A DNA stretch of 4,386 nt from a virus (Duplodnaviria; Heunggongvirae; Uroviricota; Caudoviricetes): positions 1 through 4,386 of IMG/VR virus record IMGVR_UViG_3300010262_000095; one strand, written 5' to 3'. Positions 1-4,383 of the stretch are shown here, piece after piece. The position numbers were made by a program, and so were the translations under genes. Positions within the stretch are counted from its first letter, which is position 1. Each line of letters begins with the position of its first letter. The notes under the pieces are model-generated. The model made no database searches and was not told the DNA's origin. It worked only from the letters and a program-made list of their open reading frames with translations.

Positions 1-156
1 GGGCTTGCAGTAAAAGACTTCGGGTTCGCCGATGACATTGAATTCGCTATCGGTGCGAATGGCTGCGAACTGTGCAGGGCGATCTAACGCGGGGTGCGTG
101 CCAAAGGTTTCGTAATCGTGAAAGAGGAAGGTAGGTTGTTTATCTGTGTCTGTCAT
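1..156 (-). CDS. sbcB: Exodeoxyribonuclease I (SbcB-like), 5'-terminal 52 codons only; gene continues beyond the window start
   Basis: Reverse-complement of 1-156 translates in frame from ATG (154-156) as MTDTDKQPTFLFHDYETFGTHPALDRPAQFAAIRTDSEFNVIGEPEVFYCKP with no stop to the window edge. FLFHDYETFG is the N-terminal DEDDh exonuclease motif of Exo I. Absent from the ORF track because the fragment is short and partial. Confidence 0.7.
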   Translation of the reverse strand, partial: MTDTDKQPTFLFHDYETFGTHPALDRPAQFAAIRTDSEFNVIGEPEVFYCKP

Positions 157-176
157 TGTCTAGCATTGTCCACTGT

Positions 177-188
177 AGTTAATTAACT
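177..188. promoter_or_regulatory. Perfect 12-bp palindrome AGTTAATTAACT in the sbcB/int junction region; candidate protein-binding site (operator or recombination core element)
   Basis: Seen directly: 177-188 equals its own reverse complement. It lies 21 bp from the sbcB-like ATG and within a run of TGTC motifs (147-191). Confidence 0.3.
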
Positions 189-284
189 GTCTGTTATAAC
201 TCGAAAAACAACCATTTTTTCACCTGAGTATGTCTACGAACGTCAAATATAGTTGTTTACTGTGCGCTGTTGTCCATGTGATAT

Positions 285-329
285 TGTGTACCAGATGTGT
301 ACCAAACCATTATTTCTGAGCGTACCAAA
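285..329 (+). repeat. Three direct GTACCA-core repeats (TGTGTACCA at 285-293 and 296-304; GTACCAAA at 299-306 and 322-329) immediately upstream of int; candidate arm-type integrase binding sites or int regulatory sites
   Basis: Seen directly: GTACCA cores at 288-293, 299-304 and 322-327, spaced 11 and 23 bp (about one and two helical turns). The last copy ends 11 bp before the int ATG. Confidence 0.4.
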
Positions 330-337
330 TATTATTT

Positions 338-1516
338 ATGGCTATAAGCGACACAAAACTGCGTACTATTTATGGTAAACCATATTCGGGCCCACAAGAA
401 GTGGCTGATGCCGATGGCCTCAGCGTACGAATTTCACCGAAGGGGGTCATCCAGTTCCAGTACCGCTATCGCTGGCATGGCAAGCCTAATCGACTTGGGC
501 TTGGTCGATACCCATCCCTGTCTTTGAAGGATGCCAGACAGATCACTGCTGACTTGCGAAAGCTCTATTTCTCAGGAACGGATCCACGCACTTATTTTGA
601 AGAGAAGGTGGAGAACTCCATGACGGTCGCCCAGTGTCTCGACTACTGGTTCGACAACTACGTCTCTACAACTCTCAGAGAAAAGACCCAGGCACTTTAC
701 CGATCAACGGTTATGAAGCGCATGCATGACGCCTTTCCTAATCGTCCGGCATCTTCTATCACGGTTAAGCAATGGGTTGACCTGCTTACCGAAGAAGAAA
801 GAGATAATCCACGCCGAGCAAGGCAGGTGCTAAGCCAACTAAGATCAGCAATAAGTTGGTGCATGCGGCGTCAGTTGATAGATAGTTGCGCAATTATGAG
901 CATCCAACCAAGGGACTTCGGCTCCCGCGCTGAGGTAGGGGATCGGGTACTGTCGTATCACGAACTGGCTAAGATTTGGCTTGCTATTGAAAGAAGCCGT
1001 GCGTCTACGTCAAATAAGCTCCTTCATCAGATGCTTATGCTGTGGGGGGCGAGGCTCTCAGAGCTTAGGCTGGCAACAAAGACAGAATTTGACCTGCTGG
1101 ACAACGTATGGACCGTACCGAAAGAGCATAGCAAGATGGGTAATGTTATCCGCCGTCCAATCTTCGAACAAATTAAGCCTTTCCTCGAAAAGGCCATGAC
1201 AACGTACAATGATGTTCTTTTCCCTGGAGAAGACATAAACAAACCGATCAGCATCGCTGCAGCCAACCGATTCGTAAATAGAATAAGGGGAGGGATGGAT
1301 CTAGGTTACTGGCGAACACACGATTTCAGAAGAACGCTTGTTACACGTCTGTCCGAGATGAATGTCGAGCCCCATGTTACTGAGCGAATGCTCGGTCATG
1401 AACTTGGCGGGATAATGTCCGTATACAATAAACACGATTGGATAGAGGCTCAGCGCAAAGCGTATGAGCTTCACGCTGATAAATTGTTCTGGCACATCAG
1501 GAGCATTTCTGATTAA
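338..1516 (+). CDS. int: Site-specific tyrosine recombinase, P4-type phage integrase (392 aa)
   Basis: Long ORF with the first in-frame ATG at 338, preceded by an in-frame stop at 317-319. The N-terminus (LSVRISPKGVIQFQYRYRWHGKPNRLGLGRYPSLSLKDAR) resembles the arm-DNA-binding domain of P4-like integrases. C-terminal catalytic signature present: HDFRRT (1319-1336), GHELGG His (1397-1399), candidate nucleophile Tyr in SVYNKHDW (1424-1426). No clear SD upstream. Confidence 0.9.
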   Translation: MAISDTKLRTIYGKPYSGPQEVADADGLSVRISPKGVIQFQYRYRWHGKPNRLGLGRYPSLSLKDARQITADLRKLYFSGTDPRTYFEEKVENSMTVAQCLDYWFDNYVSTTLREKTQALYRSTVMKRMHDAFPNRPASSITVKQWVDLLTEEERDNPRRARQVLSQLRSAISWCMRRQLIDSCAIMSIQPRDFGSRAEVGDRVLSYHELAKIWLAIERSRASTSNKLLHQMLMLWGARLSELRLATKTEFDLLDNVWTVPKEHSKMGNVIRRPIFEQIKPFLEKAMTTYNDVLFPGEDINKPISIAAANRFVNRIRGGMDLGYWRTHDFRRTLVTRLSEMNVEPHVTERMLGHELGGIMSVYNKHDWIEAQRKAYELHADKLFWHIRSISD

Positions 1517-1688
1517 CGCCACCGTTAAGAATCCACCCTTCAACAGCTTCACGAAGGTATGATTTGGGGTGGGTTCTGACTGGCTTCGGAAATCCATGCC
1601 GTTTGGTATAGTTCCAGATTGTCTGACGTGATGAAACACCGAGCTTGTTCATCACTTCTTTCTCAGGAATCAGGCTGGTATCGGTCAT
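1497..1688 (-). CDS. AlpA/Vis-family helix-turn-helix protein, putative excisionase / recombination directionality factor (63 aa)
   Basis: ATG at 1688-1686 with SD GGAG (1696-1699) 7 nt upstream. Sequence SLIPEKEVMNKLGVSSRQTIWNYTKRHGFPKPVR...YLREAVEGWI fits the AlpA-family pattern. It lies immediately beside int and its 3' end overlaps the int 3' end by 20 bp. Confidence 0.75.
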   Translation of the reverse strand: MTDTSLIPEKEVMNKLGVSSRQTIWNYTKRHGFPKPVRTHPKSYLREAVEGWILNGGVNQKCS

Positions 1689-1702: not shown

Positions 1703-1729
1703 CAAAAAGAAACCGCCATCAGGCGGTTT
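1703..1729 (-). terminator. Rho-independent terminator: 8-bp stem (1710-1717 / 1722-1729, 5 GC pairs), 4-nt loop, then a U-tract on the minus-strand transcript (1703-1709); possibly bidirectional
   Basis: Seen directly: AAACCGCC-ATCA-GGCGGTTT. The minus-strand RNA continues CUUUUUG; the plus-strand RNA continues GGUGUUCUUUC. The hairpin contains the stop codon of the 55-aa ORF and lies between that ORF and the excisionase-like gene. Confidence 0.6.
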
Positions 1730-1886
1730 GGTGTTCTTTCAGTTCTTCAATTCGAATATTGGTTACGTCTGCATGCGCTATCTGCGCCCATATCATCCAG
1801 TGGTTATAGCAGTCGTTGATGTCCTCTGCTTCGATAACCCTGTCGAATGGCTCTCCATTCCATTCACCTGTGACTCGGAAGTGCAT
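1719..1886 (-). CDS. Hypothetical small acidic protein (55 aa), not in the supplied ORF track
   Basis: ATG at 1886-1884 immediately preceded by an in-frame TAA. SD GGAG (1894-1897) 7 nt upstream. Translation MHFRVTGEWNGEPFDRVIEAEDINDCYNHWMIWAQIAHADVTNIRIEELKEHQTA (11 acidic, 4 basic residues). The TGA stop (1721-1719) sits in the terminator loop. Same strand as the operon. Confidence 0.55.
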   Translation of the reverse strand: MHFRVTGEWNGEPFDRVIEAEDINDCYNHWMIWAQIAHADVTNIRIEELKEHQTA

Positions 1887-1958
1887 TTATCATCTCCATA
1901 AAACAAAACCCGCCGTAGCGAGTTCAGATAAAAGAAATCCCCGCTATTGCGAGGATTG

Positions 1959-2243
1959 TTATTCATTGCCGATATTCACCTTTATCGCGAACACCTTTAC
2001 CGGTTTATCACCGAAGTGCGGATGTGTGATTGTCTTGATTTCATATCCGTCATACGGAACATCAATTCTGCGGCTGGAATCGTCGCGCTTCGGATATCCC
2101 TTTGTGATAATCAGGCGGTCATACTCCCGGAACATAATTCGCTTATTCCAGTAGTCATTACACAGGCGATACTCTTCCGTTTTCTCTCCACTAATCATGG
2201 CATCGAAGTATTCACCTTTGACGGAAAGTTGCAGGTTAGCCAC
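1959..2243 (-). CDS. ASCH/PUA-like small protein (94 aa); start revised to GTG 2243 instead of TTG 2318
   Basis: GTG at 2243-2241 with AGGAGG (2250-2255) 6 nt upstream; it overlaps the upstream gene's stop by 8 bp. Contains GEKTEEYR (2166-2189), matching the GxKxxExR hallmark of ASCH-type PUA-like domains. The ORF-track start at 2318 is a TTG deep inside the upstream gene without an SD. Confidence 0.6.
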   Translation of the reverse strand: MANLQLSVKGEYFDAMISGEKTEEYRLCNDYWNKRIMFREYDRLIITKGYPKRDDSSRRIDVPYDGYEIKTITHPHFGDKPVKVFAIKVNIGNE

Positions 2244-2454
2244 GGTTAACCTCCTGCGCCGTTTTGATGATTGCTGCCAGACAATTCTTGCAAGGAACAA
2301 GCAGCGCTCCCTGCTCAATGCTCAACAGCGCGTGCTGAGCATCCTGAAACAACCAGTCTGAAAATTGTGGCGCATGTCCGCACCACGTTTCTATTTCATG
2401 CTTTGCAAGTTTAACTCCCTCTCGATAGTCATATTTGATGATGTGCTTGCTCAC
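2236..2454 (-). CDS. Hypothetical 72-aa protein with a possible Cys/His metal-binding arrangement (C25, H27, C55, C58)
   Basis: GTG at 2454-2452 with AGGAGG 7 nt upstream; GTGA overlap with the stop of the preceding gene (2451-2453). Translation MSKHIIKYDYREGVKLAKHEIETWCGHAPQFSDWLFQDAQHALLSIEQGALLVPCKNCLAAIIKTAQEVNRG. No family recognised. Confidence 0.55.
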   Translation of the reverse strand: MSKHIIKYDYREGVKLAKHEIETWCGHAPQFSDWLFQDAQHALLSIEQGALLVPCKNCLAAIIKTAQEVNRG

Positions 2455-2642
2455 GACTTCACCTCCTGTTGAGCAGAAACCTGATTTTTGAGTGATTCAG
2501 AAATATTCCTGCAATACCTAGCGGATTCATCGTCGAAAATGCTTTCGAAATACTCAGCAATCCAGCCGAACACAACAACCTGCTCATTGCTTGGATTTGC
2601 GCTTTGATTGAAGGCGGTTATTAGTGATGCACTCATACTCAC
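2451..2642 (-). CDS. Hypothetical small acidic protein (63 aa; alternative ATG start at 2636)
   Basis: GTG at 2642-2640 overlaps the upstream TGA stop (2639-2641); ATG two codons later at 2636-2634. AGGAGG upstream (4 nt from the GTG, 10 nt from the ATG). 8 acidic and 4 basic residues. No family recognised. Confidence 0.55.
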   Translation of the reverse strand: MSMSASLITAFNQSANPSNEQVVVFGWIAEYFESIFDDESARYCRNISESLKNQVSAQQEVKS

Positions 2643-3319
2643 TTAACCTCCTGTTTTGGTGCTGCTGGAAGCGGCATCCAGTGGGTTATGATTACTTCGC
2701 GAGGATTGCAGTCGTCCTCTACTGGCTGCCACTCCGTCCATCCGTTGGTTTGATAGACAAAGAAATAAGCAGGAATGTAGCCTGGTTCATCTCCTTCAAA
2801 ATATGTTCCCCAGCAAAGATACAAGCAATTGCTATCAGGCATTCGCTCACTACAGCTTATCCAACCATCCGGAATTACCGGAGAGTTGCCACCGGGAATA
2901 TTTTCCGGAATATTTTGTTGTGCGTTTTGTGGTTGTTCGGATTTACCCTGAAGCATAGCGGCACGGCAGGCGTTCCAGCCTCTCACCTCTGCAATAGCAG
3001 CAACAGCATCGACCGCGTACATTTTAAGAGGGTTAGGCATTGGTTTTTCTTCAGGTACTACTGGCACTGGAGGGGCGGCATAAACAGGAATAACGTCCGA
3101 TTGATCTTTATTGCTTTCATCTGTTAAAGCCCAGAATAATTTTCCAGCCGGATGTTTGAAAATATAAGCAACTGGTTCTGCTTCCAGCGATGCCAGCGCC
3201 AACTTGAACGCCTGAAGCTCAATGGCACTGTTGGTATCCAGTCCAAACGGTAATTCATCACGATTGGCTTCGTATTCAGCGATAGTTTGCTTCAGCCATT
3301 CTTTGGTTAGTTCAGCCAT
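2639..3319 (-). CDS. DUF551-domain prophage protein (226 aa from ATG 3319; ORF-track start 3370 judged less likely)
   Basis: C-terminal region DGWISCSERMPDSNC...GWTEWQP...VIITHWMPLPAAPKQ matches the DUF551 signature (WI..ER.P ... THWMPLP.PP) as I recall it. ATG at 3319-3317 lies 4 nt after the upstream stop (3324-3326) with a weak AGGG/AAGGGG SD. ATG 3370 has no SD and would overlap the upstream gene by 47 bp. Confidence 0.65.
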   Translation of the reverse strand: MAELTKEWLKQTIAEYEANRDELPFGLDTNSAIELQAFKLALASLEAEPVAYIFKHPAGKLFWALTDESNKDQSDVIPVYAAPPVPVVPEEKPMPNPLKMYAVDAVAAIAEVRGWNACRAAMLQGKSEQPQNAQQNIPENIPGGNSPVIPDGWISCSERMPDSNCLYLCWGTYFEGDEPGYIPAYFFVYQTNGWTEWQPVEDDCNPREVIITHWMPLPAAPKQEVK

Positions 3320-3323
3320 ATCC

Positions 3324-3776
3324 CTAATTCCCCTTGATGCTGACTTTGACGCCAACCTTGCGAATCTCATCGGCGCATCTGTTCACGATACTCCGGTGAA
3401 ACTCACAAAAAATTTTCGCCGACTGCGGCCCTAATGGGTGAACATTGTGCGCACGCGGCAGTACAACCTCCCGCGCCTCCATGTCAGCAATCCGCTTGTC
3501 TTTGGCTTCCAGCTCATCCAGCAGCGCCAGCACGGTAGCTGGATTGGCTGCGGCGATGAATTCAGCATTGGCCTGCTGTTCCATTTGGAAATCTTCATCG
3601 AAACCGCTTTCAGGATGCGCTCCTTCAATTCTGCAAATGGGAAGATATCCAACAACTTCACGATGAATTAGCGCATCATCAGCATCAAATCTCTCCTCTC
3701 CATATTCGAGCGACCACACACCACTCGTTGCTTTCTCTGCCGCTTCACGCAGTGCCTGATAGTCAATCTTGCTCAC
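3324..3776 (-). CDS. Ea22-like (ead/Ea22 family) prophage protein (150 aa)
   Basis: GTG at 3776-3774 with AAGGAGG 6 nt upstream; GTGA overlap with the upstream stop. N-terminal IDYQALREAAEKATSGVWS and internal FIAAANPATVLALLDELE match motifs I recall from lambdoid ead/Ea22-like proteins. Confidence 0.65.
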   Translation of the reverse strand: MSKIDYQALREAAEKATSGVWSLEYGEERFDADDALIHREVVGYLPICRIEGAHPESGFDEDFQMEQQANAEFIAAANPATVLALLDELEAKDKRIADMEAREVVLPRAHNVHPLGPQSAKIFCEFHRSIVNRCADEIRKVGVKVSIKGN

Positions 3777-4204
3777 TGGTTGCCTCCTTTGCGAAGCTGG
3801 GCAGCAAAGTCACGGATAGTGTCATCAAGGTCTGGGCACAACAGATGGTCAGCAAACATCTCCACGCCCTGCGCCCGTACTTCATCCAGAAAAGCATCGG
3901 TGGCTGGGGTTTCAGTAACATCATCTTCCCATTCGCTAAACTCCTCACGACAAAAGTCATTAAATTCCTTCTCAGATTGCTTAAGCGATGTATTTTCTGC
4001 AGCCATCTTCGCGCATTTAGCCTCAAGGTTATCAATCGTGATTCCAGCAGAACGACACTCCCGCAACGCCGTTTCCAGTTTTGATTCAAGTTCACCGAAC
4101 TTACGGACAAGATATTCAGCGTTTGTTTCGTTAATCTTTAAATCTCGTGGGATGTATTTACCTTTCAGAAAACCATCCATCTCAATTAGTGACATTTGTT
4201 TCAT
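3773..4204 (-). CDS. Coiled-coil prophage protein, possibly the N-terminal partner of an Ea22-like pair (143 aa from ATG 4204; ORF-track GTG start at 4222)
   Basis: ATG at 4204-4202 forms an ATGA overlap with the upstream stop (4201-4203). GTG 4222 has no SD. The central region ([38 protein letters not shown]) looks coiled-coil. The C-terminal [21 protein letters not shown] resembles segments of Ea22-like proteins, from memory. Confidence 0.55.
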
Positions 4205-4383
4205 TTCTTCCCACTCCGCCACATCGCATTCAGATATTTGTTTTGATTTACTGACGGAAAAGAATTTCTCTTAAGCAATTCCTCTCTCGATGGCATTGGC
4301 TTTACGCGTTGGCGAATAATCATTTCTGCCGGAAGAATGCCGGGATTGTATGCAAGTCCTCTCATGGTAAATTCCTCAGTCAT
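4201..4383 (-). CDS. Hypothetical small protein; 5' end uncertain (frame is open to the window edge; candidate starts at ATG 4383 and at SD-supported ATG 4365)
   Basis: Frame is open from 4386 to the TGA at 4203-4201. ATG 4365-4363 is preceded by GAGG 6 nt upstream. Translation from 4365: [54 protein letters not shown]. No family recognised. Confidence 0.4.

Follow-up and report, generated by a model that had tools for sequence, protein, structure and literature searches.

The stretch of DNA analysed here (4,386 nucleotides, hereafter the window) opens with the left boundary of a lambdoid prophage, which occupies the known sbcB site of Escherichia coli, and the anatomy of this junction is clear. 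Positions 1–110 are host sbcB, the gene for exonuclease I (ExoI), and the DNA from position 124 onward is that of the phage. We hold with high confidence the whole account developed below, in which attL lies inside the start of sbcB and the 5' end of the gene has been restored by the phage. Regulatory consequences for sbcB, as judged from the sequence, appear plausible at low probability. The features on which the argument rests are as follows (window positions).

1–110, minus strand: host-derived sbcB (exonuclease I), hybrid codons 16–52 plus the first two bases of codon 53
111–123, unstranded: 13-bp att core CGTAATCGTGAAA, the attL crossover region, common to attP, attB, attL and attR
124–156, minus strand: phage-supplied hybrid sbcB codons 1–11, MTDTDKQPTFL, with the ATG at 156–154; present in virion genomes, missing from empty sites
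157–337, unstranded: P' arm of attP, the entire sbcB–int intergenic region; phage DNA by the virion genomes and the four-way att relation
286–295, plus strand: predicted arm-type Int binding repeat P'1, GTGTACCAGA, by motif match
297–306, plus strand: predicted arm-type Int binding repeat P'2, GTGTACCAAA, by motif match
320–329, plus strand: predicted arm-type Int binding repeat P'3, GCGTACCAAA, by motif match
338–1516, plus strand: tyrosine integrase, type 2851, 392 aa; by Pfam domains and identity to phage int genes
1497–1688, minus strand: AlpA-family helix-turn-helix protein, likely the excisionase; phage records name it AlpA family or "similar to excisionase"

The att core and the prophage boundary

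The sbcB gene exits past the start of the window, and the matching E. coli genomes all annotate positions 1–110 as this gene. The window was aligned to a prophage-free K-12-type locus (L001), in which dacD is the divergent neighbour. As the initial annotation had anticipated for such an alignment, similarity breaks off within the window: it is full over positions 1–123 (100% identity to K-12 sbcB), patchy over 124–140 (13 of 17 positions match) and lost past 140. Phage records match the window from base 111 on, and positions 124–337 are therefore phage DNA. The segment 111–1520 is found at ~99% identity in the virion-derived genomes HK140, mEp234, HK544 and Sf101, whose records mark attP at this place.

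The core, read on the minus strand (123–112), encodes F-H-D-Y of ExoI. The HDYET segment of the enzyme contributes the initial acidic residues of the DEDD motif (Asp15 and Glu17, K-12 numbering), and the core thus falls in one of the best-conserved stretches of sbcB. A search of the fetched loci with CGTAATCGTGAAA gave an exact four-way relation: attP (virion genomes of mEp234 and HK140) consists of P arm, core and P' arm; attB (K-12) of sbcB body, core and native 5' end; attL (the window, 14EC017, STB20-1 and phage 1717) of sbcB body, core and P' arm; and attR (STB20-1) of P arm, core and native sbcB 5' end. The empty site has sbcB and dacD adjacent to each other, and the occupied site has the prophage between them. 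The suggestion that an att core overlaps the 5' end of sbcB, with a look-alike replacement supplied by the phage, is thus borne out by the core at 111–123 and by the look-alike segment carried in virion attP.

A duplicated core was also expected at the opposite end of the prophage, and it was found in the intact lysogen STB20-1 (L003). There, a 38.5-kb P22-like prophage lies between sbcB and dacD, and its right end, gtattgcgCGTAATCGTGAAAcaaaaaggtagattgttgcttaccgtcattcat, reads from phage DNA through the 13-mer into the native sbcB 5' end, which sits at attR. This attR comes from a lysogen related to the window, with 98% identity across the portions they have in common; the window itself ends inside the prophage. 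In the attR of STB20-1 (L003 40386–40445, minus strand), the displaced promoter and the first 16 native codons open a 20-codon orphan ORF, MMNDGKQQSTFLFHDYAQYP plus stop, which runs into the prophage antisense to its last gene (S24 peptidase/UmuD-like).

In the mechanism that we propose, the tyrosine integrase encoded at 338–1516 recombined the attP core with the identical 13 bp in the F-H-D-Y codons of sbcB; in K-12 numbering, the codons at the crossover include that for the catalytic Asp15 of the DEDD exonuclease motif. The native 5' end of sbcB is displaced by ~38 kb to attR, adjoining dacD. The P' arm of attP in turn brings in a diverged look-alike, which has its ATG in frame, 11 codons and, upstream of them, 181 bp of DNA, and the ExoI ORF is left intact.

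Among 5,426 complete E. coli genomes, 582 (10.7%) match all of window 1–340, and essentially all the remaining ones match only ~1–140; a second, junction-centred query again returned 582 genomes. Every one of the 582 genomes with the MTDTDKQP N-terminus carries the phage junction through 340, as do none of the others. These counts bear on the alternative that MTDTDKQP is a natural sbcB allele and that the prophage truly ends elsewhere, either upstream of the sbcB start codon or before window position 1. The native N-terminus of Salmonella diarizonae, MTDDKQQPTFL, is similar, so such sequences do occur as host alleles. However, positions 124–337 stand next to the P arm in virion DNA, the MTDTDKQP N-terminus is confined to the 582 junction-bearing E. 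coli genomes, and the displaced native 5' end sits at attR. The virion genomes, the four-way att relation and the 582-genome count refute the natural allele, to which we assign next to no probability. The initial annotation had itself named two ways in which it could fail, namely prophage-free strains identical through 1–337 and a boundary beyond the window start; positions 124–337 are absent from prophage-free strains, and the boundary lies inside the window at 111–123.

The phage-supplied 5' end and the hybrid exonuclease

The minus-strand ORF that leaves the window (156 to 1) translates to MTDTDKQPTFLFHDYETFGTHPALDRPAQFAAIRTDSEFNVIGEPEVFYCKP, and the N-terminus of K-12 ExoI at the prophage-free locus is MMNDGKQQSTFLFHDYETFGT; both the MTDTDKQP start and the K-12 start given in the initial annotation proved correct. 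It had been proposed that the phage might supply the start codon and the first ~8 codons. The phage does provide the start codon and N-terminal codons, but their number is 11 (124–156), and only ~8 residues look different because the last three phage codons (T-F-L) encode host residues. MTDTDKQPTFL stands where K-12 has MMNDGKQQSTFL, and the phage T-F-L codons differ from those of the host despite specifying the same residues (TTC CTC vs TTT TTG). The ribosome-binding region and the entire 181 bp upstream of sbcB are likewise contributed by the phage. The arrangement is of the Campbell type, with the core inside the coding sequence and a phage flank that gives the ATG and 10 more in-frame codons. 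With the crossover inside the reading frame, 12 codons from the native gene start have moved to attR along with the promoter and the ribosome-binding region.

Hybrid ExoI has 474 aa against 475 aa for the native protein and aligns to the solved E. coli ExoI without gaps from Met2. The Pfam RNase_T domain begins at hybrid residue 12, the first core-encoded codon. Across native SbcB of ~80 enterobacterial species, residues 1–8 are highly variable (MNDGKQQP, MTDDKQQP, VSDSAARP, MQDSANQP and others) and (T/G)FLFHDYET is conserved. Because the replaced residues precede the exonuclease domain and fall in a naturally variable segment, the hybrid enzyme is, on this sequence comparison, most likely fully active, and we would expect it to work normally. 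Hybrid sbcB is annotated as complete and non-pseudo in both lysogens examined (14EC017 and STB20-1), and phage 1717 differs from the window at base 139, inside the supplied codons, by a synonymous AAA-to-AAG change.

We also looked for a donor of the 33-nt look-alike. No specific source emerged among the ~80 species, since identity to every native sbcB 5' end examined was 17–23 of 33 positions (Citrobacter amalonaticus 23, S. diarizonae 22, K-12 21). In 14EC017 (L002 3338–4903) the junction is 100% identical to window 1–340 and the integrase is truncated by IS1, which leaves the prophage end unable to excise by its own Int and the hybrid gene fixed in place.

The P' arm and sbcB expression in lysogens

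The int ATG begins at 338 and the sbcB ATG occupies 156–154, which leaves the 181 intergenic bases counted in the initial annotation. The P' arm makes up this whole region and must therefore contain the 5' untranslated region and promoter of sbcB in the lysogen, and also the promoter of int. The int-associated repeats that had been noticed in the junction DNA correspond to the predicted arm-type sites at 286–329. Chance predicts 0.03 occurrences of their motif, GYGTACCARA, in the window; it occurs there three times, a number not attained in any of 200 shuffles. The P arm of attP and attR holds another two copies, 55–77 bp left of the core (L003 ~40320–40345). The predicted sites thus flank the core on both sides, with two on the P arm and three on P'. 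With arm-type sites on the P' arm, the sbcB start codon and all DNA that could hold its promoter would come to lie inside a functional P' arm. A search with the IHF consensus gave matches below chance expectation, and the P' arm yielded no convincing one. Within this arm, an AT-rich inverted repeat (AAACAACCATTTTT at 206–219 and AAATATAGTTGTTT at 245–258, 86% complementary) separates the arm-type sites from the sbcB start; an accessory protein could bind there.

A scan of window 1–500 found no sigma-70 consensus promoter. In a looser PWM scan, the best candidate directed toward sbcB is a weak one, TGGACA (276–271) and TATATT (251–246) with 19 nt between them, and its score of 10.2 is within the shuffle range (median 8.7, 95th percentile 12.1). 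The native K-12 upstream region scores lower still. The candidates are no better than shuffles in the phage-supplied region, in the native K-12 region and in the int direction, and with the native region equally poor the scan cannot separate the two. We suppose that sbcB in the lysogen would be transcribed from a weak promoter inside the P' arm.

A harsher outcome would be that the insertion cripples sbcB, the upstream phage DNA having no adequate promoter or ribosome-binding site and the lysogens being ExoI hypomorphs. Consistent with this, the 181-bp phage-supplied region has no consensus promoter and just a weak GGA Shine–Dalgarno-like element 12 nt upstream of the ATG, and papers on Shiga toxin-producing E. 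coli (STEC) often term occupied sbcB "disrupted" (or speak of its "occupancy"). However, K-12 fares no better: its native upstream region scores just as poorly in that scan, and it too has a GGA 12 nt before Met2, which aligns with the phage ATG. The look-alike retains the frame, the length and the conserved P/S-T-F-L, with differences of the synonymous type; such a pattern would be expected under selection on the restored gene. An intact ORF is also present in ~11% of genomes, among them a remnant whose integrase is dead. We consider a crippled sbcB improbable and retain the reading of a restored gene.

The integrase carries Arm-DNA-bind_3 (PF13356, residues 4–85) and Phage_integrase (PF00589, residues 204–366) domains, and the motifs GARLSEL, HDFRRT and VYNKH in its translation were assigned to R, H-x-x-R and Y by inspection only. 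The AlpA-type ORF (1497–1688) had no Pfam match at E ≤ 0.001; int and this likely xis are convergent and overlap by 20 bp (1497–1516). Farther in, the minus strand, which also encodes sbcB, carries a mosaic early-left region (window 1719–4383) with Ead/Ea22-like, DUF551 and ASCH-type genes and several small ORFs. Coverage of the window reaches at most 76% in any complete E. coli genome, and none of the 5,426 therefore represents this combination of early-left genes. Three terminator-like hairpins lie on the minus strand just upstream of xis (1957–1936, 1925–1906 and 1729–1710, the last of them bidirectional), and between xis and sbcB there is just one weak terminator-like site (1195–1176).

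On induction, anti-terminated early-left transcripts, running antisense through int, could conceivably read into sbcB. This is one of two routes by which the prophage might actively rewire sbcB, coupling ExoI to the phage state and shifting its dosage to the benefit of the phage, for example through altered recombination or ssDNA-sensing defence systems; the other would be Int acting on the P' arm-type sites in the sbcB promoter region. The three predicted sites (286–329) do fall within the sole DNA available for an sbcB promoter, early-left transcription past the hairpins at 1957–1710 would meet only the weak site at 1195–1176 before sbcB, and at least one phage-defence system, DRT10, is sensitive to ExoI dosage. 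Against this, the argument is purely positional, stable lysogens contain little Int, the early-left strand has three terminator-like hairpins ahead of xis, and the geometry follows from attP architecture alone and needs no selected regulatory role. We therefore give active rewiring a small chance. For the ~11% of E. coli concerned, and for most Stx2c O157 strains, ExoI would be made from attP DNA that contains Int arm-binding sites and is situated downstream of the early-left operon, and it is possible, though we think it rather unlikely, that its dosage differs or responds to induction. Were dosage altered, recombination, the processing of ssDNA ends and the firing threshold of DRT10- or retron-type ssDNA/cDNA defence might change.

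Phage relatives, comparable systems and other genera

The junction belongs to the already described type 2851 integration module, the site of which is published. Phage records match window 111–1520 at 98.7–99.2% nucleotide identity over 1,410 nt; they comprise the Stx phages 2851, 1717 and the Stx2a_WGPS series, the HK97-like HK140, mEp234 and HK544, and the Sf6-like Sf101. Phage 2851 itself stands at 98.7% over this length and other members at up to 99.2%. The window has the 13-bp core, the near-identical integrase and the insertion in the sbcB 5' end beside dacD that define type 2851. Compared with the phages of this module (2851, 1717, Sf101, HK140, mEp234 and HK544), the core is identical, integrase and P' arm agree at the same 98.7–99.2%, and nothing essential differs; the prophage of the window has another early-left gene mosaic. 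CGTAATCGTGAAA has been published as the attP of phages 2851 and Sf101, together with the finding that the Sf101 integrase is 99% identical to those of HK544, mEp234 and 2851 (Jakhetia et al.). GenBank records label the 13 bp as "prophage attachment site (type 2851)" and as "duplication due to insertion of stx2c phage."

In E. coli O157 typing, sbcB is a routine and standard marker for Stx-phage insertion, and the occupied gene is here seen to be rebuilt, not disrupted. The accessible papers report the core and the site and do not take up the restoration of the reading frame or the displacement of the promoter, and literature searches for sbcB expression or an N-terminal change in lysogens gave nothing relevant.

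Restoration of a gene end by a phage arm is classical and familiar from Campbell's reviews, as with phage 21 and e14 in icd and the tRNA-targeting P4, P22 and Sf6. Like these, the present phage has its core inside a gene and an arm with a diverged copy of the gene end. They restore the 3' end and leave the host promoter and start codon untouched, whereas here the 5' end is replaced and the start codon, ribosome-binding region and promoter therefore all become phage DNA. The 5'-end version is less common because the control region is also swapped. Lambda attP shares a tyrosine integrase with an N-terminal arm-binding domain and a short identity core, and its P1–P2 and P'1–P'3 sites resemble the two-plus-three layout of direct repeats predicted here. 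Lambda, however, inserts between gal and bio and touches no coding sequence, unlike the insertion in sbcB, and it co-transcribes xis and int, whereas the integrase here is of the Arm-DNA-bind_3 (P4-like) group and convergent with xis. Prophages of active lysogeny, such as Listeria phi10403S in comK, likewise lie within a host gene involved in DNA transactions. They split that gene, which is inactive until excision, whereas the sbcB frame is restored in the lysogen, so that excision is unneeded for an intact gene. If the new control region alters ExoI levels, the prophage would confer a change in host DNA metabolism on about one-tenth of E. coli strains; if levels are unchanged, which is the likelier case, the junction is a clean example of the less common 5'-end restoration.

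Integrases 59–61% identical to that of the window occupy the same position relative to sbcB, upstream of the gene, in Kluyvera sichuanensis (L033), Kosakonia oryziphila (L046) and a third record (L042).

L033, 627–1802: related integrase; sbcB start near 2001
L042, 627–1802: related integrase; sbcB start near 2001
L046, 648–1823: related integrase; sbcB start near 2001

In each, the N-terminus supplied is a different one with a GTG start (V-T-V-K-N-D-N-I-Q-R-TFL or V-T-D-K-N-G-S-I-Q-S-TFL). With related integrases at sbcB in several genera, the 5' end of this gene appears to be a target of a wider integrase family.

Intestinirhabdus alba (L077, ~1940–2000) has the upstream motif ggcgtgtacatcagGTGaca and a VTDKNDSIQP N-terminus common to the Kluyvera and Kosakonia junctions. 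No related integrase lies within 2 kb of its sbcB, and the locus is probably a fixed attL remnant. Two E. coli and Shigella loci with odd sbcB N-termini, Shigella flexneri SFBU0723 (L010, 1970–2010) and E. coli ECGI0523 (L022, ~1240–2010), were considered as new junctions and rejected; they are empty or degraded, with apparent indels that seem to reflect faulty assembly or decay. In ECGI0523, dacD is fragmented as well. The L042 record (CACSKA010000001.1) is titled Chryseobacterium sp. 18061 and holds an enterobacterial sbcB, 87% identical to the E. coli protein, with a Kluyvera-like junction; it is probably mislabelled or contaminated.
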